Shown in pieces: positions 1-6,596 of a DNA stretch of 6,596 bases. The position numbers and the translations under genes were made by a program. The notes beneath the pieces were generated by a model. The model was not told the origin of the DNA and did no database searches. It saw only the letters and a program-made list of their open reading frames with translations. The DNA comes from a virus. Position 1 is the first letter of the stretch, and each line of letters starts with the position of its first letter. Location: IMG/VR virus record IMGVR_UViG_3300045988_014290. The stretch is one strand, 5' to 3'.

Positions 1-84
1 AGGGCGTCCGTCAAAATCCTGCCTTTGTGCAAAACGGAGAAAATGTTGCAAAAACAGGCCAAATAGGCGATATCGTATCCCCAT
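1..84. repeat. Left terminal inverted repeat (84 bp). Contains related sub-motifs TTTGTGCAAAACGG (24-37) and TGTTGCAAAAACAGG (45-59).
   Basis: Positions 1-84 are the reverse complement of 6513-6596 with 2 mismatches (pos 56 and 59); aligned by hand. Confidence 0.95.
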
Positions 85-95
85 TCGCGGATTTG

Positions 96-110
96 TGTTG
101 CAAAATCAGG
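96..110 (+). repeat. Subterminal direct copy (14/15) of the TIR-internal motif TGTTGCAAAA[A/T]CAGG.
   Basis: tgttgcaaaatcagg at 96-110 versus tgttgcaaaaacagg at 45-59. A partial inverted echo, cctgattttctgtga, lies at 6499-6513 just inside the right TIR. Confidence 0.6.
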
Positions 111-275
111 TGTTTTTGGGTGTTTCTCGATCCACTTACCGTGGCATGCCGTTCCCGTAACTGAACCGGGAACTCACCTTGGCCCACCATCAATTGCACA
201 CTCATATTACACCCGGCTTTCCCGCCCGTCAACCGCTTTGGCTGATTTGTAACTCACCTGTAACATTCCCGTATT

Positions 276-299
276 TTTGTTACACCGTTTGTTACACCG
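276..299. repeat. Tandem direct repeat, 2 x TTTGTTACACCG.
   Basis: Perfect 12-mer duplicated at 276-287 and 288-299. A nearby AACTCACCT motif also repeats at ~171 and ~251. Confidence 0.8.
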
Positions 300-397
300 C
301 AGCGAGTGATTCTAAATGAGGGGCACGCAGGGGCCTTTTGTTGCACGGCAAACGGCAACGCGCCCCTCACCCCGCCGCACCCCGCGCGGCACATAAG

Positions 398-436
398 GAA
401 AGAGGGCCATTCTTAGCGGAAGAATGGCCCCCTTTC
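398..436. terminator. GC-rich hairpin A1. Core GGGCCATTCTT-agcgg-AAGAATGGCCC at 404-430 is an 11-bp stem that extends with one mismatch to 398-436. REP-like or factor-independent terminator-like.
   Basis: Perfect inverted repeat read directly; no clean U-tract on either strand. Confidence 0.5.
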
Positions 437-451
437 GATTCCCCAAGACCG

Positions 452-468
452 CAAGGGCTACGCCCTTG
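452..468. repeat. Hairpin B1, CAAGGGC-tac-GCCCTTG.
   Basis: 7-bp perfect stem; sequence family shared with hairpin B2 at 735-752. Confidence 0.5.
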
Positions 469-734
469 ACCTGCCATTGCCCGCCTCTGCAAGGCTGATG
501 CTGCACGCGCTGCGCAAAGGAGTGCGTGCAGTTTCTTATTGCCGCTTTCGATTTGGCTTGCTCCTTGTGGCCGCTGCCGCTCTGCGGTGGGGTTTCGGAA
601 GAAATTTTTAACAGCAGCTCGTACCAGCACCGCAGCAGCGGCTGAGCGGAAAGAGAAGCACACCAGATCGTTCAGAAGAAAAAGTCAAACATACGGTTGC
701 CAAAAGGGTAATTTAATATGAGCAGTTCGGGGGT

Positions 735-752
735 CAAGGGGCTTGCCCCTTG
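735..752. repeat. Hairpin B2, CAAGGGG-cttg-CCCCTTG.
   Basis: 7-bp perfect stem; same family as B1. Confidence 0.5.
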
Positions 753-768
753 CGCTCTCTTGGGGTTT

Positions 769-807
769 CAAAGGGGCCATTCTCTACGGTAGAGAATGGC
801 CCCTTTG
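769..807 (-). terminator. Hairpin A2, CAAAGGGGCCATTCTCT-acggt-AGAGAATGGCCCCTTTG: a 17-bp perfect stem. Probable terminator of the minus-strand hsp20 gene, whose stop codon is at 859-861.
   Basis: Perfect 17-bp inverted repeat 52 nt beyond the hsp20 stop. It shares the GGGCCATTCT core with hairpin A1. The U-tract is poor, as is common in high-GC Actinobacteria-like DNA. Confidence 0.5.
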
Positions 808-858
808 GTCGCACCGCCGTCAGGCGGCAAATGTCGCGCCGCCCTCAGGCGGCAGATC

Positions 859-1299
859 TCACTCGATCGCCAGTCTCCGGCTGCCGGAGACCTCAACGTC
901 CTTCTTCGGCATCGTCAGGCTCAGCACGCCGTCGTTGTAGCTGGCCTTGATGCCCTCGGCCTTGACGCCGGAGATATCGAAGCTCCTCGCGTAGCTGCCG
1001 TAGCTGCGCTCGCAGCGGACGTAGCTCTTGTCCTTCTCCTCGTGCTCGTTCCTGCGCTCGGCCTTGATGGTCAGGTTGTCGCCGTCGATGTCGATGGCAA
1101 TGTCCTCCTTCTTCATGCCGGGCAGATCGGCCTCGAGCAGGTAATGGTCGCCCTTGTCCTGAATGTCGGTCTTGAACGTGCCGACGTCGCCGAGGAAGTC
1201 GCGGTTGCCGAAGAACGCGCGCTCCAGCGCCTCCATGTCGCGGAACGGGTCATAGGTGGTCATGTGGTTATTGTTGCGGTAAGGTCTCAGTTCAAACAT
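859..1299 (-). CDS. hsp20: Small heat-shock protein, Hsp20/alpha-crystallin family (146 aa).
   Basis: The translation contains a typical alpha-crystallin domain (GDHYLLEADLPGMKKEDIAIDIDGDNLTIKAERR..., GVLSLTMPKK) and a C-terminal I-x-I/V-type motif (LAIE). A GGAGG Shine-Dalgarno lies 8 nt before the ATG on the minus strand. Third codon positions are very GC-rich, unlike the rest of the window. Confidence 0.93.
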   Translation of the reverse strand: MFELRPYRNNNHMTTYDPFRDMEALERAFFGNRDFLGDVGTFKTDIQDKGDHYLLEADLPGMKKEDIAIDIDGDNLTIKAERRNEHEEKDKSYVRCERSYGSYARSFDISGVKAEGIKASYNDGVLSLTMPKKDVEVSGSRRLAIE

Positions 1300-1427
1300 A
1301 ATGAATACCTCCGGAAATTCGAGATTTGGAAAGCCTCGGGAGCTTGCCTTCCTTTGCTTTTCTTGACTCAGAGTCTACCCCGGAATTGTGTCCAAAGATA
1401 CGCATTTGTGTGAACGGACTATGAATT

Positions 1428-1454
1428 TTAGCACTCTCACTCTAAGAATGCTAA
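1428..1454. promoter_or_regulatory. CIRCE-like inverted repeat TTAGCACTC-N9-GAATGCTAA, one mismatch to the HrcA operator consensus TTAGCACTC-N9-GAGTGCTAA. It lies ~130 nt upstream of the hsp20 start.
   Basis: Read directly from the sequence. The 9-bp arms have the canonical 9-nt spacer and sit in the divergent region between hsp20 (-) and Rep (+). Confidence 0.6.
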
Positions 1455-1506
1455 AATCGTCGGATTTTGTTGCATTTGACGGGCAGCCTGCCCCAAAACC
1501 GCCCAT

Positions 1507-1595
1507 GTCTACCCGATGTCTACCCGCCGAAACGCCTGGGGCGCAAGGGCTTGCGGGTTTTCCAAGAGGGCCGCCGTCTACCCTTCCGTCTACCC
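1507..1595 (+). repeat. Iteron array: four direct copies of GTCTACCC (1507-1514, 1518-1525, 1576-1583, 1588-1595) as two pairs. They flank a small GC hairpin (cgcaa-gggc-ttgcg, ~1540-1553) followed by a gggtttt run.
   Basis: Exact 8-mers counted by hand. The first pair forms an 11-bp tandem ATGTCTACCCG x2 and the second pair is CCGTCTACCC-tt-CCGTCTACCC. Confidence 0.7.
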
Positions 1596-1661
1596 AATTT
1601 TTCGCGCCGATTCTTGAAATGCCTGCCATTGCTGCGAAAATTTTTGAAATTTCCGAAAATA

Positions 1662-1684
1662 TATGGGGGTACGATATCCCCATA
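1662..1684. promoter_or_regulatory. Hairpin TATGGGG-gtacgatat-CCCCATA immediately upstream of the Rep SD. It contains GGGGGTACGATATC, a 13/14 match to the GGGGATACGATATC motif at the inner TIR boundaries.
   Basis: Compared with 6515-6528 (same orientation) and the RC of 69-82. Confidence 0.55.
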
Positions 1685-1700
1685 CAAAGAAGGTGATTTC

Positions 1701-2714
1701 TTGTCATGCTATCATCCGCTTAAAGCCTTTGTCTTAGGTGAAAAAGACGGCAAACGGTTGCTCAAGGTGACGTGTTATGAGGTAGACCATCTTGAACGTT
1801 CTGGTGAAGGTTTTGCTTGTTGTACGCATCCTGCTTATGGTCGTCCTGGTGATGTTACCGAGTTTATCGAGATTCCCTGCGGAAAGTGTTCCGGCTGTCG
1901 TCTCCAGCGTTCGCGTGAATGGGCTAACCGATGTATGCTGGAGCTTGAATATCACAAGTCCAGTTATTTTGTAACGCTTACTTATGATGATGCTCATGTT
2001 CCGATTCATTACTATTCCGACCCCGAGACTGGCGAGGCCCTGCCGAGTATGTCTCTTGTGAAGCGTGATTTTCAGCTTTTCATGAAGCGTCTCCGTAAGA
2101 AGTTTGGCGAAGGTATTCGTTTCTTTGCTTCTGGTGAGTATGGTTCAGTGTCTTTTCGTCCGCACTATCATGCTATCATTTTTGGACTTGAGCTTAACGA
2201 CCTTGTTTTTTACAAGAAGTCTTTTCAAGGCTTCACTTACTATAATTCGCCTTCTCTTAAAGAAGTTTGGCCGTATGGCTATGCTGTTGTAGCTCCTGTG
2301 ACTTGGGAGACCTGCGCTTATACTGCTCGTTATGTTATGAAGAAGCTCACTGGCCCTGAAGCTGAGTTCTACGAGAATTTCAACATTGTTCCTGAGTTTT
2401 CGCTTATGTCTCGCAAGCCCGGCATTGCCCGGCAGTATTATGAAGACCATCCTGACCTATATGAACATGAGTTCATCAACATTTCGACTGAGAAAGGAGG
2501 AAGGAAGTTTCGACCTCCGAAGTATTATGATAAGTTATTTGATGTCGATTGTCCGGAAGAATCTGCCAAGCTTAAGGCTGTCCGTCAGAAGATGGCAGCT
2601 GAAGCTCAGAAAGCAAAACTACAGAAAACCACACTTAGTTATTTAGACCAGCTTGCTGTTGAAGAACGCAACCAGCTGGCCCGAATAAAATCATTGAAAA
2701 GGAGTTGTATCTAA
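1701..2714 (+). CDS. Rolling-circle replication initiation protein (gokushovirus VP4 / phiX174 A-like HUH endonuclease), 337 aa from a TTG start.
   Basis: Motifs are present: FVTLTYDD (motif I), PHYHAIIFG (HUH), and YTARYVMKK (catalytic Tyr pair with Lys). The N-terminus SCYHPLKAF...PCGKCSGCR matches the conserved gokushovirus Rep N-terminus. The first in-frame ATG lies well inside the conserved region, and the tracked start at 1467 is also TTG. The TTG at 1701 is preferred because AAAGAAGGTGA sits 4-5 nt upstream and the conserved N-terminus begins there. Confidence 0.88.
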   Translation: MSCYHPLKAFVLGEKDGKRLLKVTCYEVDHLERSGEGFACCTHPAYGRPGDVTEFIEIPCGKCSGCRLQRSREWANRCMLELEYHKSSYFVTLTYDDAHVPIHYYSDPETGEALPSMSLVKRDFQLFMKRLRKKFGEGIRFFASGEYGSVSFRPHYHAIIFGLELNDLVFYKKSFQGFTYYNSPSLKEVWPYGYAVVAPVTWETCAYTARYVMKKLTGPEAEFYENFNIVPEFSLMSRKPGIARQYYEDHPDLYEHEFINISTEKGGRKFRPPKYYDKLFDVDCPEESAKLKAVRQKMAAEAQKAKLQKTTLSYLDQLAVEERNQLARIKSLKRSCI

Positions 2715-2827
2715 TGCGTAAGAAAATGCGTCCCAAGAAAGACAAGAAGGTCTTTCGCCGTACTGCTGCGAAGTCCAAGAAGATTAATATCAATCCGACT
2801 GTTTTCCGTGGAGGTATCCGGCTGTGA
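2714..2827 (+). CDS. Small highly basic DNA-binding protein (37 aa, MRKKMRPKKDKKVFRRTAAKSKKININPTVFRGGIRL), the gokushovirus ORF8 / phiX174 J-like packaging protein.
   Basis: Hand translation. 15 of its 37 residues are K or R. The ATG overlaps the Rep stop (TAATG), and an AAAAGGAG SD lies 9 nt upstream. It occupies the position of the J-like protein in gokushoviruses. Confidence 0.65.
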   Translation: MRKKMRPKKDKKVFRRTAAKSKKININPTVFRGGIRL

Positions 2828-2913
2828 AGTGTCCGTTTGATTATCCCGATTACGATTGTCCTTATGAGGACGACCCAGATTTAACATGTGAAGATTGTGA
2901 GGTTTTGAAATGA
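2824..2913 (+). CDS. Tiny acidic Cys-rich ORF (29 aa from GTG: KCPFDYPDYDCPYEDDPDLTCEDCEVLK); hypothetical.
   Basis: A GTG start overlaps the upstream stop (GTGA), with GGAGG 9 nt upstream. Its stop overlaps the next ATG (ATGA). The four Cys are arranged C-x8-C...C-x2-C. It is too short to be listed in the ORF track. Confidence 0.3.
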   Translation: MKCPFDYPDYDCPYEDDPDLTCEDCEVLK

Positions 2914-3161
2914 AATACGGTGTTTATTCTATCCGTGATGCTCGGACGGGTTTTCTCCCGCCTACGGTAGATCAGAACGATTCTTCCGCTATGCGGAATT
3001 TCGCTCATGCCTGTATGCAGAAGGAAAGCCTTTTGTTTTCCCACATTGAGGACTATGCCCTCTGTAAGATAGGTGAGTTTGATTCTTCTAAAGGTGTGAT
3101 CACGCCTCAGCCTGTCGATGTTATTTTGGATGGTTCTTCCATTCAAGGAAAGGATTATTGA
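2910..3161 (+). CDS. Hypothetical 83-aa protein in the position of gokushovirus VP5 (small non-structural protein).
   Basis: The ORF has GAGG 7 nt upstream of its ATG and is chained by overlaps to the neighbouring genes. Its codon usage matches the capsid genes. It has no recognisable catalytic motif. Confidence 0.55.
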   Translation: MKYGVYSIRDARTGFLPPTVDQNDSSAMRNFAHACMQKESLLFSHIEDYALCKIGEFDSSKGVITPQPVDVILDGSSIQGKDY

Positions 3162-3163
3162 CC

Positions 3164-3664
3164 ATGTATGATGAAAAGCTTGGATTCTCTACTCAGTATC
3201 GTCCGCGAACTCGCTTCATTTCAAATGGAGGTCAGCGCGAAAGGATTCTCTATCAGCCTAAATTTGATGAGAATGGAGTTATGGATCTCGTTGAATCTGG
3301 CAAAGAAGACCTTTACGATTTCATTCAATCCCACGCCGAAGCCGTTGACATCCACGTGATTTTGGCTCGATTTCAGAATGGCGACGTTGACGCGCTTTCG
3401 CGTGTCCAAGGCGCTTATGGTGATTTCACCAATATGCCAACGTCTTATGCTGAACTTCTGAACAGGGTTAATGAAGGTCAGAGCTTTTTCAATTCTCTGC
3501 CTGTGGATATCCGTGCAAAGTTTAACCACAACTTTGCGGAGTTCATGGCTGGCATGGACAAGCCTGATTTCCTTGACAAGCTCGGAATCAAGCCCGAGCG
3601 AGAGCCTGACCCGTCCCAGGAGGAAAAACCGGCTGTTGAGCCGAAAAAGGAGGTTACGGAATGA
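3164..3664 (+). CDS. Internal scaffolding protein, gokushovirus VP3-like (166 aa from ATG 3164; alternative TTG at 3158).
   Basis: Its size and position, immediately upstream of VP1 with an ATGA overlap, fit VP3. The C-terminal tail is acidic and Pro/Glu-rich (PEREPDPSQEEKPAVEPKKEVTE). An AAGGAAAGGA run precedes the ATG. Confidence 0.7.
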   Translation: MYDEKLGFSTQYRPRTRFISNGGQRERILYQPKFDENGVMDLVESGKEDLYDFIQSHAEAVDIHVILARFQNGDVDALSRVQGAYGDFTNMPTSYAELLNRVNEGQSFFNSLPVDIRAKFNHNFAEFMAGMDKPDFLDKLGIKPEREPDPSQEEKPAVEPKKEVTE

Positions 3665-5358
3665 ATCGTAATGTTGAATCTCATTTTGCACTTAATCCCA
3701 CAAACATTGATATCCGGCGCTCGACGTTTGACCGCTCGCATTCGCTTAAAACTTCGTTTAACGTTGGTGACATTGTACCTTTTTTCGTTGACGAAGTACT
3801 ACCGGGAGATACGTTCAACGTGGACACATCCAAGGTTGTGCGCCTGCAGACGCTGCTTACTCCGGTCATGGACAACATTTACCTTGATACGTATTTCTTC
3901 TTCGTACCGAACCGTCTTACGTGGTCTCATTGGAAGCAGTTCAATGGTGAGAATACGGAATCTGCGTGGATTCCTCAGACGGAGTATGAAATTCCTCAGG
4001 TTACTGCTCCTGCTGATAGCGGATGGTCTGTTGGAACTATTGCCGATTATCTCGGTGTCCCTACTGGCGTTCCTAATCTTTCCGTTAGTGCTCTTCCCTT
4101 CCGAGCTTATGCCCTGGTGATGAATGAGTGGTTTCGTGATGAAAACCTATCTGACCCGCTCGTTGTTCCCGTCGATGATGCTACTGTAGCTGGTGTTAAT
4201 ACTGGTACGTTCGTGACTGATGTTGCGAAAGGCGGTCTTCCCTATAAGGCTGCTAAGTATCATGACTATTTCACAAGCTGTCTTCCGTCTCCGCAGAAAG
4301 GCCCGGATGTTTTGATTCCTTCGGCTACGTCCGGTGAATATCCTGTTGTTACTCGTGAACAGCCTCATGATCCCGGTGGATATGTTTTGACTGGTGTTTC
4401 TAATATTTCTTTTGCTTCTGGAGACCGACCTGTTAATATCTATGATTCTCTTGCTTTTAAGCCTGTTGTTGCTGGTTCTAATTATGCTGGTATTACTGGT
4501 TTCAGTGGTGGTGCTGATAAGCCCGGTTTCGATCCTGTTAACCTTTATGCTGTTTCTTCCGGTGGTCTTGGTGCTTCTATCAATCAGCTTCGTATGGCGT
4601 TCCAGATTCAGAAGCTCTATGAGAAAGACGCTCGTGGTGGTTCCCGCTACATCGAGATTCTTAAGTCTCATTTCGGCGTGACTTCTCCGGATGCCCGTCT
4701 TCAGCGTCCCGAATATCTCGGTGGTAACCGTGTCCCCATTAATATTAATCAGGTTGTCCAGCAGTCGGCCACGGCTTCCGGTGAGACTGCACAAGGTACT
4801 GTTACTGGTATGTCTGTCACTACGGATACCCATTCTGATTTCACGAAGTCTTTCACGGAGCATGGTTTTGTCATCGGCGTTATGGTCGCTCGCTACGATC
4901 ATACTTATCAGCAGGGTCTTGAACGTTTCTGGTCTCGTAAGGATCGCTTTGATTACTATTGGCCTGTGTTCGCCAATATTGGCGAACAGGCTGTGAAGAA
5001 CAAGGAGATTTTTGCCCAAGGCCCTGGCGTTAAGGATACCGCTGGTGCTGTCATTGATGACCAGGTCTTTGGTTATCAGGAAGCGTGGGCTGATTACCGT
5101 TATAAGCCGTCCCGTGTAACTGGTGAGATGCGTTCTCTGTATGCGCAGTCTCTTGATGTTTGGCATCTTGCCGACGATTATACTGCGCTTCCTATTCTTT
5201 CGGATTCTTGGATTCGTGAGGATAAGGCTAACGTTGATCGTGTGCTTGCAGTTACTTCCGCTGTCAGTAATCAGTTGTTTGCCGATATCTATATCAAGAA
5301 CCGGACTACCCGGCCTATGCCTATGTATTCTATCCCCGGTCTTATTGATCATCACTGA
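3661..5358 (+). CDS. Major capsid protein VP1 (F-like), Gokushovirinae type, 565 aa.
   Basis: The N-terminus MNRNVESHFALNPTNIDIRRSTFDRSHSLKTSFNVGDIVPFFVDEVLPGDTFNVD is the conserved gokushovirus VP1 start, and the length is typical. A perfect AAGGAGG SD lies 7 nt upstream. The ATG overlaps the VP3 stop. Confidence 0.95.
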   Translation: MNRNVESHFALNPTNIDIRRSTFDRSHSLKTSFNVGDIVPFFVDEVLPGDTFNVDTSKVVRLQTLLTPVMDNIYLDTYFFFVPNRLTWSHWKQFNGENTESAWIPQTEYEIPQVTAPADSGWSVGTIADYLGVPTGVPNLSVSALPFRAYALVMNEWFRDENLSDPLVVPVDDATVAGVNTGTFVTDVAKGGLPYKAAKYHDYFTSCLPSPQKGPDVLIPSATSGEYPVVTREQPHDPGGYVLTGVSNISFASGDRPVNIYDSLAFKPVVAGSNYAGITGFSGGADKPGFDPVNLYAVSSGGLGASINQLRMAFQIQKLYEKDARGGSRYIEILKSHFGVTSPDARLQRPEYLGGNRVPININQVVQQSATASGETAQGTVTGMSVTTDTHSDFTKSFTEHGFVIGVMVARYDHTYQQGLERFWSRKDRFDYYWPVFANIGEQAVKNKEIFAQGPGVKDTAGAVIDDQVFGYQEAWADYRYKPSRVTGEMRSLYAQSLDVWHLADDYTALPILSDSWIREDKANVDRVLAVTSAVSNQLFADIYIKNRTTRPMPMYSIPGLIDHH

Positions 5359-5369
5359 GAGGTGATTTT

Positions 5370-6161
5370 ATGACTACTGGTAAGGATGCTGCCCAGGTTC
5401 AGAGTGTTCCTGCTGTTGGAAATTTGGATTCTGCTCTTTCTCGTATTACTCGGACTGCTTCGGAAAACACCGCTAAAAGCGCTCAGATGGCTTCTGAGCA
5501 ACGCGACTGGCAGGAAAGGCAAAATGCCCTGGCTATGCAATTCAACGCTCAGGAGGCCGCTAAAAGCCGTTCTTGGCAGGAATACATGTCCAATACTGCG
5601 CATCAGCGTGAAATTCGCGACCTTAAGGCTGCTGGTCTTAATCCGGTACTTAGTGCTATGGGAGGTAACGGCGCTGCCGTTACCTCCGGTGCTACTGCTT
5701 CCGGCGTGACCTCTGCTGGAGCTAAAGGCGAGGTTGATACTTCTGCTAATGCTGCTTTGGTTCAGATTCTTGGCTCTGTCCTTTCGGCACAGACTCAGCT
5801 TCAGACTGCTAATGTTAATGCCAGGACTCAAGAGGCCGTCGCCGATAAGTACACCGCGATGGAGAAGCTCGTTGCTCAGATCGGTGCCGATGCTTCAAAG
5901 TATTCTGCAAATGCTCATTATGCTCTTGGTAAGTATCAGACTGATAAAGGTTTTGAGAATCAGGTGTTTCTTGAGCAGAACTATCCTTCGAACTATGTTC
6001 AAGCTGTTAATTCTATTCTCAAGGCTCTTGGTCTTGATGTTACTGGTGGTTCTACCTCCGGTGAAGGTTCTGTTTCTGCTGAACAGTATGCTAAGCTCAT
6101 GGAAAAGTATAATGCTGCTCTTCTTGGTTCAGGTCCAAAACGTTCTGGCCATCAGAGGTAA
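5370..6161 (+). CDS. Minor capsid / DNA pilot protein VP2 (H-like), 263 aa.
   Basis: Its position directly after VP1 fits VP2. It carries the conserved NTAHQREIRDLKAAGLNP segment typical of gokushovirus VP2, and Gly/Ala/Ser/Thr-rich low-complexity linkers. GAGAGGTGA precedes the ATG. Confidence 0.85.
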   Translation: MTTGKDAAQVQSVPAVGNLDSALSRITRTASENTAKSAQMASEQRDWQERQNALAMQFNAQEAAKSRSWQEYMSNTAHQREIRDLKAAGLNPVLSAMGGNGAAVTSGATASGVTSAGAKGEVDTSANAALVQILGSVLSAQTQLQTANVNARTQEAVADKYTAMEKLVAQIGADASKYSANAHYALGKYQTDKGFENQVFLEQNYPSNYVQAVNSILKALGLDVTGGSTSGEGSVSAEQYAKLMEKYNAALLGSGPKRSGHQR

Positions 6162-6163
6162 AG

Positions 6164-6205
6164 AAAATAGAAAGCGTCGAGGCTTTGCCTCGGCGTTTCT
6201 ATTTT
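6164..6205 (+). terminator. Rho-independent terminator after VP2.
   Basis: A ~19-20-bp stem (AAAATAGAAAGCGTCGAGGC-ttt-GCCTCGGCGTTTCTATTTT; GC core gcgtcgaggc/gcctcggcg with two G-U wobbles) is followed by and includes TTTCTATTTT. It starts 3 nt after the VP2 stop. Confidence 0.75.
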
Positions 6206-6243
6206 GTAACCAAGCGTGAGCGCGGTTAGCGAATAGATATGCA

Positions 6244-6263
6244 CCAGCGAGCGCCAGCGAGCG
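6244..6263. repeat. Tandem direct repeat, 2 x CCAGCGAGCG.
   Basis: Exact 10-mer duplicated at 6244-6253 and 6254-6263. Confidence 0.8.
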
Positions 6264-6267
6264 AACA

Positions 6268-6300
6268 CAGCCCCATTACCTTCTTGATGTAATGGGGCTG
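6268..6300. repeat. Hairpin CAGCCCCATTAC-cttcttgat-GTAATGGGGCTG (12-bp perfect stem).
   Basis: Read directly. No adjacent U-tract, so it is a structural or binding element rather than a classic terminator. Confidence 0.55.
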
Positions 6301-6338
6301 AGTGACACCACGATAAGCAAAATGCTCTCTTTAGGTTA

Positions 6339-6366
6339 TTGACAAGCTATGAATATATGATATATT
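6339..6366 (+). promoter_or_regulatory. Sigma70-like promoter: TTGACA (6339-6344), a 16-nt spacer, then TGaTATATT as an extended -10 (6358-6366). A 15-bp perfect palindrome AATATATGATATATT (6352-6366) overlaps the -10 and is a candidate operator.
   Basis: Consensus -35, a 5/6 -10 with TGn, and an AT-rich upstream region. It sits ~30 nt upstream of the SD and ATG of the small ORF. Confidence 0.55.
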
Positions 6367-6396
6367 AATGAATATAATAAACTGTAAGGTGATTAA

Positions 6397-6513
6397 ATGA
6401 AAAATGATAAAGATAAAATGCTTGATGATTTTTGTTTACAGATGCTTTTGCTTGTAGGAGCTGGTGTTGCTCTAATTTTTATTGTTTGTTCTTTCCTTCC
6501 TGATTTTCTGTGA
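6397..6513 (+). CDS. 38-aa single-pass membrane peptide (MKNDKDKMLDDFCLQMLLLVGAGVALIFIVCSFLPDFL). Candidate small lysis, toxin or membrane peptide.
   Basis: An AAGGTGA SD lies 4-5 nt before the ATG and a strong promoter lies upstream. The charged N-terminus is followed by a ~21-residue hydrophobic segment. The ORF sits in the lowest-GC part of the window and its stop abuts the right TIR. Confidence 0.45.
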   Translation: MKNDKDKMLDDFCLQMLLLVGAGVALIFIVCSFLPDFL

Positions 6514-6596
6514 TGGGGATACGATATCGCCTATTTGACCCGTTTTTGCAACATTTTCTCCGTTTTGCACAAAGGCAGGATTTTGACGGACGCCCT
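6513..6596. repeat. Right terminal inverted repeat (84 bp), partner of 1-84.
   Basis: RC of 6513-6596 matches 1-84 at 82/84 positions. The stop codon of the 38-aa ORF (6511-6513) overlaps its first base. Confidence 0.95.

Follow-up and report, generated by a model that had tools for sequence, protein, structure and literature searches.

A gokushovirus prophage at a multi-copy core site upstream of surface-protein genes in an Oscillospiraceae chromosome

Introduction

When a GC-rich gene for a small heat-shock protein (hsp20) stands beside microvirus genes of much lower GC content in one viral record, it could be cargo acquired by the virus, part of a chromosome into which the virus has integrated, or one of two templates that were joined artificially. 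A first-pass annotation of IMG/VR record IMGVR_UViG_3300045988_014290 raised all three options for the 6,596-nt stretch analysed here (the window). Gut gokushoviruses are among the most abundant members of the mammalian gut virome, and their hosts are mostly unknown; for Gram-positive lineages, few host cases are on record (PMC9239249). We conclude, with a probability of about 0.9, that the window is a piece of an Oscillospiraceae chromosome carrying an intact gokushovirus prophage of 4,850 nt between two copies of a 19-bp core.

Results

Windowed GC content and codon usage show that the mosaic composition perceived by eye is real. The hsp20 gene has 60.5% GC and, as its evident third-position bias had suggested, a GC content at third codon positions (GC3) of 0.905, and the microvirus part (1682–6512) has 45.9% GC, with genes whose GC3 is 0.375–0.49 and whose third positions are T in 36–53% of cases, in line with the earlier estimate of about 45% GC and T-ending codons (GC3 counts, 133/147 for hsp20 vs. 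587/1421 for the phage genes; Fisher p = 7e-33). Likewise, 6300–6510, judged to be about 30% GC, has 29.9%. The value for 300–1300 had been set too high, at about 65%: its GC content is 59.3%, and a peak of 65.5% is limited to 200-nt windows around 801–1000. The best single GC change point falls at 1249, away from the true junction at 1663–1681, because the host intergenic DNA at 1300–1662 has merely 48.8% GC; the host DNA at 1–299 has 48.5%. Host DNA occupies 1–1662 and 6532–6596, and is not confined to the block at 300–1460 that had been singled out as foreign. The premise that a virus and its host rarely differ so much in composition fails here, the phage lying some 11–13 GC points under its host.

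Positions 1–1681 match an uninterrupted bacterial contig (L001, from NCBI GCA_027494445.1) at 99.94% identity, well above the 95% to a bacterial chromosome that had been proposed as the mark of host DNA. The same contig resumes at window positions 6513–6596, and the 19 bp by which its two matches overlap define the empty site (attB). Phage-free chromosomal contigs in which 1–1681 and 6513–6596 adjoin are up to 410 kb long, such that the option of a microvirus integrated beside a higher-GC hsp20 region is the one that holds. The host is a bacterium of the Clostridia/Oscillospiraceae, and not the Actinobacteria-like organism that had been supposed; its closest relatives in the genome collection are Oscillibacter sp. 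MSJ-31, which carries empty att sites, and the metagenome-assembled genome UMGS1945. These two were also the only true relatives recovered when the collection was scanned for the core. Nine of the 12 matching loci (in Lachnospiraceae, Ruminococcus, Verrucomicrobiae and others) were set aside as chance matches, having only the 19-mer in common, several of them apparently in coding sequence.

Because MDA over-amplifies microviruses in viromes and assemblers can be misled by palindromes, and because the ends of the window are inverted copies of each other, the junction might be suspected to be an assembly or amplification chimera of a microvirus with unrelated bacterial DNA. The probability of such an artefact is negligible, and the same evidence disposes of the artificial two-template join. 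Identical junctions were recovered from different assemblers and sources, and the full 6,596-nt window occurs at 100% identity within three longer contigs (10,048, 9,826 and 7,116 nt), which extend into SLH genes or their upstream leader. Three of the contigs with 100% identity may share one sequencing run (ERR589859), assembled by different groups, and the independence of the junction evidence therefore rests mainly on other prophage variants: the same junctions occur in about 30 further contigs with different prophages, whose VP1 is 85–99% identical to that of the window. The reciprocal polymorphism of attL and attR, described below, would also not be expected of a chimera.

The DNA between the two cores encodes VP1 to VP5, all on the + strand, and no external scaffold or spike gene was found. 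The replication initiator VP4/Rep (337 aa; 1701–2714; Pfam REP_ORF2-G2P, supported by gene calls in contigs L025–L027) starts at a TTG preceded by gaaggtga; a longer Rep reading frame from 1467 was rejected since it extends back into host DNA. It is followed by a small basic protein (37 aa; 2714–2827), probably DNA-binding as judged from its composition, and by VP5 (2910–3161; Phage_ORF5, E = 1.4e-22), the internal scaffolding protein VP3 (3158–3664; Chlamy_scaf, E = 3.5e-40), the major capsid protein VP1 (565 aa; 3661–5358; Phage_F, E = 3.6e-163) and the DNA pilot protein VP2 (263 aa; 5370–6161), which had no Pfam match and was assigned from its position and its alignment to annotated GenBank relatives. 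By this gene content the phage is classified as a gokushovirus (Microviridae; Family 3 of Kirchberger et al. 2022). Downstream of VP2 are a strong promoter-like site, recognized from its consensus match (TTGACA-16-TATATT, 11/12; 6339–6366, + strand), and, within the 30% GC region, a hydrophobic reading frame (38 aa; 6397–6513, + strand) whose stop codon takes in the first nucleotide of the core. The promoter-like site would point through attP into Rep in the free phage, and towards a host SLH gene in the prophage. Relatives of the 4,850-nt unit are deposited as circular records of 4.9–5.05 kb, circular and concatemeric contigs were also found, and GenBank gokushoviruses, these circular records included, match only 1663–6528 of the window. 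In a scan of the whole window, a sub-threshold Rfam match of the attL hairpin to CyaR (27.7 bits; cut-off, 47) was treated as chance.

All four attachment forms were recovered: attB as an empty site, attP in free phage, and attL and attR as hybrids whose flanking variants have been exchanged. In free circular relatives attP is a perfect palindrome, ATGGGGATAcgaTATCCCCAT, which divides into ATGGGGA-TACGATA-TCCCCAT, and the host core reads ATGGGGG-TACGATA-TCGCC. Hence attB carries G7/G17 and attP carries A7/C17 (contigs L011 and L012), whereas attL (ATGGGGGTACGATATCCCC; 1663–1681, + strand) joins a host left part (G7) to a phage right part (C17), and attR (ATGGGGATACGATATCGCC; 6513–6531, + strand) reciprocally joins a phage left part (A7) to a host right part (G17). 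Integrations at two further site types (S3 and S4) have only ATG[AG]GG[AG]TACGATA in common with attP, which narrows the crossover to positions 8–14. As read from these variants, integration is by conservative, reciprocal exchange, the crossover lying within the 7-bp TACGATA.

Among 54 contigs carrying the phage side of attL, 32 contained host junctions and 20 had attP only, the free contigs including one 1004x concatemer and two that were circular. Two contigs (L087 and L088) that had seemed to be integrations at a type-2 arm proved on inspection to carry an ordinary attP. Every prophage and free form surveyed had a full-length Rep, and the prophages also had full-length VP5 and VP1 and, except in one contig (L045), VP3. 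The clade, which was seen in human, pig and chimpanzee faeces, is best described from these integrated and free forms as one of temperate gokushoviruses. There were 25 integrations that could be classified, 16 beside hsp20 and at least nine at other L-arm sites without it.

What all the integrated prophages surveyed have in common is their left flank, a host segment (the L-arm; 1494–1662, + strand) that occurs in multiple copies and precedes the core at several loci. GTCTACCC occurs four times in it, and it also has a promoter-like site facing outward (1614–1641); a fifth GTCTACCC lies at 1373, the chance expectation being 0.14 copies per whole window. The host core is situated between this upstream L-arm and the leader of a gene for an SLH-domain surface protein, and 20 kb of host DNA has 2–4 copies of it, each preceding a surface-protein gene or some other gene. 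The leader, X, which has a match in front of each SLH gene of the host contigs, appears twice in the window. One copy (6532–6596, + strand), contiguous with 1681 in empty sites, leads into an SLH gene just past the right end, and the other (1–65, − strand) belongs to a second SLH gene beyond the left end and is its reverse complement with two mismatches. Next to the latter is a type-2 copy of the 19-bp core (ATGGGGATACGATATCGCC; 66–84, − strand) that has a different left flank (…atccgcga) and is unoccupied, none of the 32 integrated copies surveyed using this site. The window's ends thus form an 84-nt inverted repeat of 98% identity, with X as its outer part, which might have been taken for a viral terminus were it not that the repeat continues into host genes: in contig L025, which continues into an SLH gene, it extends more than 240 nt beyond the window ends. 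The terminal inverted repeat is the host core and leader upstream of two opposed SLH genes.

That repeat is also what would lend substance to the idea of a larger microvirus of 6.6 kb that ends in 84-nt inverted terminal repeats and carries hsp20 as cargo, as would the 16 contigs in which hsp20 adjoins the phage. We give this idea next to no credence, nor does the suggestion of a recently acquired chaperone survive. The repeat runs past both window ends into two SLH genes, and the flanks 1–1681 and 6513–6596 are contiguous in phage-free chromosomes; hsp20 lies outside attL, is missing from the free circular genomes of 4.8–5.1 kb and is missing at nine of the 25 integration sites, which is a minimum. 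Moreover, the gene (146 aa; 859–1299, − strand; Pfam HSP20, E = 6e-23) has the codon usage of the host. Its best NCBIfam match is the clostridial Hsp18 (Hsp18_Clos), aligned over its full length with a score under the cut-off, and an identical protein is indexed in 1121 blocks, in bacterial contigs of up to 410 kb. CIRCE is the operator of HrcA, and a CIRCE-like heat-shock operator (TTAGCACTC-N9-GAATGCTAA; 1428–1454), which is conserved across host strains, overlaps promoter-like sites of hsp20 found in a promoter scan; hsp20 would accordingly be placed under HrcA control. Given the host-like GC3, this operator, the clostridial family match and the integrations elsewhere, hsp20 is a host bystander in a 1.6-kb segment beside the most-used integration site, unconnected with the phage.

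The DNA 3′ of hsp20 (85–858) is non-coding host DNA with hairpins at 398–436, 769–807 and 808–857; it gave no Rfam match, its reading frames had no Pfam match, and positions 288–727 vary between host strains. The hairpins had been likened to REP elements, but within the 20-kb host loci their motifs occur only downstream of hsp20 and are not dispersed.

Which enzyme carries out the exchange? Pfam searches detected no integrase or recombinase in the phage, and none in ten host contigs out to 10 kb from hsp20. There was likewise none in the scanned reading frames of two further host loci (L017 and L068) or, with Pfam and NCBIfam, among 20 unannotated host reading frames, the host searches returning only IS transposases. 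Because the phage encodes no integrase, we infer that a host tyrosine-type recombinase probably acts on the 7-7-7 core site, exchanging attP with the host core, and that it probably needs an L-arm on one partner.

A phage-encoded alternative is that Rep, an HUH endonuclease, cuts the attP hairpin and its host match and then joins them, with no part for a host recombinase; HUH transposases and AAV Rep are models for such cut-and-join reactions. Several features would suit this mechanism: as single-stranded DNA, attP folds into a stable hairpin of 9 bp (z = -3.0), it is situated 20 nt upstream of the Rep start, where a rolling-circle origin is typically placed, neither the phage nor the host loci scanned yielded an integrase, and precise cutting and rejoining at one position would also yield hybrid cores. 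However, the 7-bp inverted arms and 7-bp asymmetric crossover spacer have the geometry of a tyrosine-recombinase core, a loop of 3 nt is not large enough to present a nick site, and phage-free contigs occur in which the host DNA between two cores is inverted. In addition, the type-2 site is never used though its core is fine, which suggests that the host L-arm is required, and not a bare nick site. Integration by Rep is, in our view, unlikely.

Far less probable still is integration by host XerC/XerD at a dif-like site. The dif consensus has an 11-6-11 layout, unlike the 7-bp arms and 7-bp spacer of the present core, which has no dif-like arms when compared by eye with that consensus, and the core is multi-copy whereas dif is a single site. 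Xer/dif recombination has been described or proposed for other integrase-less microvirus prophages, both enterobacterial and from Bacteroidetes (PMC7062461, PMC3091885).

If a host recombinase of the tyrosine type is responsible, the same activity may invert the hsp20 segment between two SLH genes. Between samples, this segment is inverted in contig L001 relative to L006, with breakpoints at the cores and no phage present, and in this one clean inversion pair SNPs place the crossover between positions 8 and 25. A simple two-state inversion was rejected as an account of all host contigs, only L001/L007 vs. L006 being clean and the others carrying further rearrangements. The host rearrangements could stem from homologous recombination between long repeats and not from a site-specific enzyme.

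Discussion

The window ties a gokushovirus clade to an Oscillospiraceae species with a cultured relative, the isolate Oscillibacter sp. MSJ-31 (PMC10989993), and since MSJ-31 has empty att sites, infection and lysogeny can be tested there. Temperate microviruses were themselves already known; here a host and an integration site are named for a common group of them in the gut. The non-dif att site is of a second kind and widens the known integration routes of integrase-less microviruses. These results also carry a warning, in that the host-derived 84-nt repeat and hsp20 could lead pipelines to report a complete, chaperone-carrying virus of 6.6 kb.

A possible explanation for the choice of site, which we hold only tentatively and think somewhat more apt to be wrong than right, is that this integrase-less clade mimics the core of a host system for shuffling SLH genes and promoters, the GTCTACCC L-arm serving as an accessory arm. 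If so, lysogeny would separate an SLH gene from its promoter and put Rep behind that promoter, and the cell surface could change, possibly including the phage's own receptor.

Lambda-type att sites comprise a 21-bp B-O-B′ core with a 7-bp overlap, plus arm-type sites. The present site is similar in that inverted 7-bp arms enclose a 7-bp asymmetric overlap holding the crossover and in that one partner has a long arm of repeated motifs (here GTCTACCC, four times), but the roles are the opposite of those in lambda, the host partner carrying the arm and the phage the minimal site. Surface-protein DNA inversion systems are known in Campylobacter fetus (sap) and Clostridioides difficile (cwpV/RecV), and there, too, inverted repeats flank a segment that occurs in both orientations, between or in front of surface-layer protein genes; unlike in those systems, several SLH genes here own an L-arm, and a phage uses the same core.

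Among microviruses, the closest parallel is with the enterobacterial gokushovirus prophages (Kirchberger & Ochman 2020, PMC7062461), which are also integrase-less, about 4.5–5 kb long and flanked by short repeats, have circular forms and, like the present phage, presumably rely on a host recombinase. They use the single chromosomal dif through XerCD, whereas the present phage, in a Clostridia host of Gram-positive lineage, uses a multi-copy 19-bp core upstream of SLH genes and has a palindromic 7-7-7 attP unlike dif. The Alpavirinae-type proviruses of Bacteroidetes (Krupovic & Forterre 2011, PMC3091885) likewise belong to the Microviridae and are integrated in gut bacterial genomes. Microviral prophages also exist in Firmicutes isolates (Kirchberger et al. 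2022, PMC9239249; Zucker et al. 2022, PMC9753089), and our literature search yielded none from Oscillibacter. In the available text of these two reports, the hosts are Erysipelatoclostridium or Mammaliicoccus, or are given by bacterial class alone, and there is no description of an att site, an empty site or a free form; in the present case, the host belongs to the Oscillospiraceae and all four att forms are defined.

Results

In a phage-free host contig (L001, NCBI GCA_027494445.1), one unbroken stretch is 99.94% identical to window positions 1–1681 and is followed directly by the counterpart of 6513–6596, with the two matches sharing 19 bp. This locus is an empty integration site, and the match identifies the left part of the window as host DNA. 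The first-pass annotation had offered a host junction as one origin of the mosaic, and the contiguity of both segments in L001 makes that junction real and well defined. The artificial join that it also considered is contradicted by recurrence: contigs of 10,048, 9,826 and 7,116 nt (JGI and ENA assemblies) contain the whole 6596 nt at 100% identity and extend into the flanking genes for SLH (cell-surface domain) proteins or their upstream leader. Because some of these contigs possibly derive from one sequencing run, more weight falls on a survey with the phage side of attL (the left junction), in which host junctions were present in 32 of 54 contigs, including pieces of contigs 11–33 kb long; since L066 and L008 are one contig, this amounts to 31 distinct further contigs. 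Twenty others carried only attP, the site of the free phage (one a concatemer at 1004x coverage, two circular), and the remaining two were L046, with attP and attR ends, and L072, which fell outside the classification.

The right-hand part of the window encodes a standard gokushovirus gene set, i.e., Rep/VP4 (1701–2714), a 37-aa basic protein (2714–2827), VP5 (2910–3161), VP3 (3158–3664), VP1 (3661–5358), VP2 (5370–6161) and a 38-aa hydrophobic ORF (6397–6513), in a phage unit of 4,850 nt. GenBank gokushoviruses from chimpanzee, pig and human samples, among them circular records of 4.9–5.05 kb, are 86–90% identical in nucleotide sequence to this part, and their matches are confined to 1663–6528; positions 1–1662 had no match in the phage collection. 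VP1 identity to the window is 82–99%, with the same span of diversity in prophages and free forms, and the prophages retain full-length Rep, VP5 and VP1, as well as VP3 in all except L045. This phage clade is temperate and no decaying relic. A 415-aa Rep ORF from TTG 1467, which extends back across attL into host DNA, was rejected; the true start is TTG 1701, 20 nt past the core, as in the gene calls of three contigs (L025–L027). Antisense to VP1 lies a 402-aa ORF (4147–5355, minus strand; gene-called in L008), most likely a by-product of T-rich third codon positions and not a gene.

In composition the window is indeed a mosaic, as windowed GC and codon usage confirm. The contrast described by eye was real but the estimate of ~65% GC for 300–1300 was too high, the computed value being 59.3% with a maximum of 65.5% in the 200-nt window 801–1000; the ~30% assigned to 6300–6510 was accurate (29.9%). 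Third positions are GC-rich in the small heat-shock gene hsp20 (GC3 = 0.905) and T-ending in the microvirus genes (T at 36–53% of third positions; GC3 0.375–0.49), both as anticipated, and GC3 differs accordingly (133/147 for hsp20 vs. 587/1421 for phage genes; Fisher p = 7e-33). The best single change point, 1249, misses the true junction, since the intergenic host DNA at 1300–1662 has a GC content of only 48.8%. Host loci are 57–59% GC, which places the phage 11–13 points below its host; together with the phage's strong preference for T-ending codons, this gap would cause composition-based host prediction to fail for the clade.

An Actinobacteria-like host had been suggested. The only true relatives in a one-genome-per-species collection are instead Oscillibacter sp. 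MSJ-31 (Oscillospiraceae, Clostridia; 96–97% identity, with empty sites), a biobank isolate cultured from the macaque gut (PMC10989993), and a MAG labelled UMGS1945 (98% identity).

The hsp20 gene (859–1299, minus strand, 146 aa; Pfam HSP20, E = 6e-23) is a bystander, a host gene next to the integration site. The assembly collection indexes its exact protein in 1121 blocks, on bacterial contigs as long as 410 kb, and the gene is always flanked by a pair of SLH-domain protein genes in opposite orientations; its codon usage is host-like, clostridial Hsp18 is the family model that matches it best, and a CIRCE-type operator upstream (1428–1454) is conserved in host strains. Among 25 integrated copies with sufficient flank, 16 used the L-arm (the multi-copy host segment left of the core, here 1494–1662) on the hsp20 side, six the L-arm on a polysaccharide-deacetylase side, and three a further site, S3, so that hsp20 is absent at 9 of 25 integrations and the notion of a microvirus-associated chaperone is not supported. 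The supposed REP-like hairpins (398–436, 769–807 and 808–857) occurred only downstream of hsp20, and are thus not dispersed REP elements in the host loci examined. Also downstream of hsp20, positions 288–727 are strain-variable and had no Rfam or Pfam match; part of this stretch (399–601) aligns at ~80% in opposite orientation in five contigs (L002, L004, L007, L008, L009), and hairpins sharing AGAATGGCCCC (421–436 and 769–783) bound it. The stretch could represent a second small element that has been inverted or rearranged.

The four forms of the core are attB in the host, ATGGGGGTACGATATCGCC; attP in free circular relatives, ATGGGGATACGATATCCCC, embedded in the perfect palindrome ATGGGGATAcgaTATCCCCAT; attL (1663–1681), ATGGGGGTACGATATCCCC; and attR (6513–6531), ATGGGGATACGATATCGCC. 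Variants at core positions 7 and 17 are swapped reciprocally, which places the crossover between them. In every integrated copy, attL has the host variant at positions 1–7 and the phage variant at 15–19, and attR is phage-like on the left and host-like on the right, the sole exception being L045, with a host-like A4 in its phage-derived left part. Exchange is therefore confined to the asymmetric 7-bp TACGATA between inverted 7-bp arms. All partner sites (attP, the main host site, S3 and S4) have in common only ATG[AG]GG[AG] followed by TACGATA. S3 (ATGAGGATACGATAC + tctcgacc) lies upstream of a DUF4317 gene, and neither it nor S4 (ATGGGGATACGATAT + gatactctatcagcg) shares sequence with the SLH leader outside the core; examples of these two kinds of site come from L008 (3803–3830), L039, L079 and L077 (reverse strand, ~178). 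Orientation is constant, with the L-arm beside Rep; attL is bordered on its left by host L-arm in every case, and the arm of the type-2 host site served in 0 of 32 integrated copies despite a good core.

Several forms depart from this scheme. In L042, a free form, attP has a host-type G7, and L046 ends in attP on one side and in attR on the other; together with L045, they may bear witness to excision and re-integration, and to the presence of both free and integrated forms in one sample. Immediately left of attP (6490–6512), several phage variants have TGAAATTTCG or TTGAATTTCCG, resembling the L-arm end TTGAAATTTCCG (1637–1662) but with another spacing to the core, which could reflect chance, a shared binding site or imprecise excision.

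Discussion

Given that integration is real, we put the probability that a host tyrosine-type recombinase performs the exchange at roughly 60%. The geometry of the core, 7-bp arms around a 7-bp overlap, would be that of a tyrosine-recombinase site, as in the attB core of lambda. ORF calls and Pfam revealed no integrase in the phage genome, and the enzyme would therefore be host-encoded; searches of ten host contigs, out to 10 kb from hsp20, and of ORFs from two further loci found no recombinase. That one partner appears to need an L-arm suggests accessory binding sites. One strand carries the motif GTCTACCC five times (1373–1380, 1507–1525 and 1576–1595; chance expectation, 0.14 copies per whole window), and the four copies within the L-arm, i.e., all except that at 1373, are conserved in every copy of this host segment; a regulator may bind them, or they may serve the recombinase as accessory contacts. 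An unlikely alternative is that the phage Rep (HUH) drives integration at an origin-like hairpin, for which it can be said that attP, when single-stranded, folds stably into a hairpin (z = -3.0) and sits 20 nt ahead of the Rep start. Integration by Xer at dif is very improbable, and homologous or other recombination takes up the remaining probability.

The host may recombine at the same cores. Every SLH gene is preceded by a core and a conserved leader, and two such genes face each other across hsp20, such that window 1–84 is the reverse complement of 6513–6596 with 2 mismatches. This terminal inverted repeat is the host's own: in L025 it runs more than 240 nt past the window ends at about 97%, and 84 nt therefore marks only where the window stops. 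A pipeline that took the repeat at face value could report a complete 6.6-kb virus bounded by ITRs. Between L001 and L006, from different samples, the 1.6-kb hsp20 segment (window 66–1681; 9619–11234 in both) is inverted relative to the outer genes with breakpoints exactly at both cores; since SNPs at repeat positions 26, 29, 97 and 132 go with the outer blocks and position 7 with the inner segment, the crossover lies within positions 8–25. The pattern agrees with site-specific exchange at the core; it comes from a single clean case, in repeats long enough to permit homologous recombination as well. Other host contigs carry further rearrangements, and surface-protein genes may be switched by inversion of the hsp20 segment.

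Consensus scans point to effects on expression. A promoter-like site in the L-arm (1614–1641) faces outward, toward the SLH gene normally and Rep in the lysogen, and a strong promoter-like site of the phage (6339–6366), from which transcription would normally run through attP into Rep, points at the SLH gene once integrated. With both redirected, integration would rewire both transcription units.

The host–phage junction is of moderate interest for microvirus biology. Clostridiales are predicted hosts of gut gokushoviruses (PMC10159846), and a genome survey lists Clostridia among the Firmicutes classes with Microviridae-like regions (PMC9753089); for Gram-positive lineages, reports of complete prophages are limited to Erysipelatoclostridium and Mammaliicoccus isolates (PMC9239249). 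Our literature search found no description of an Oscillospiraceae host, an SLH-leader site or these att forms. Integrase-less microvirus prophages as such are already known, from Bacteroidetes (PMC3091885) and from Enterobacteriaceae, where they reside at dif and use XerCD (PMC7062461).
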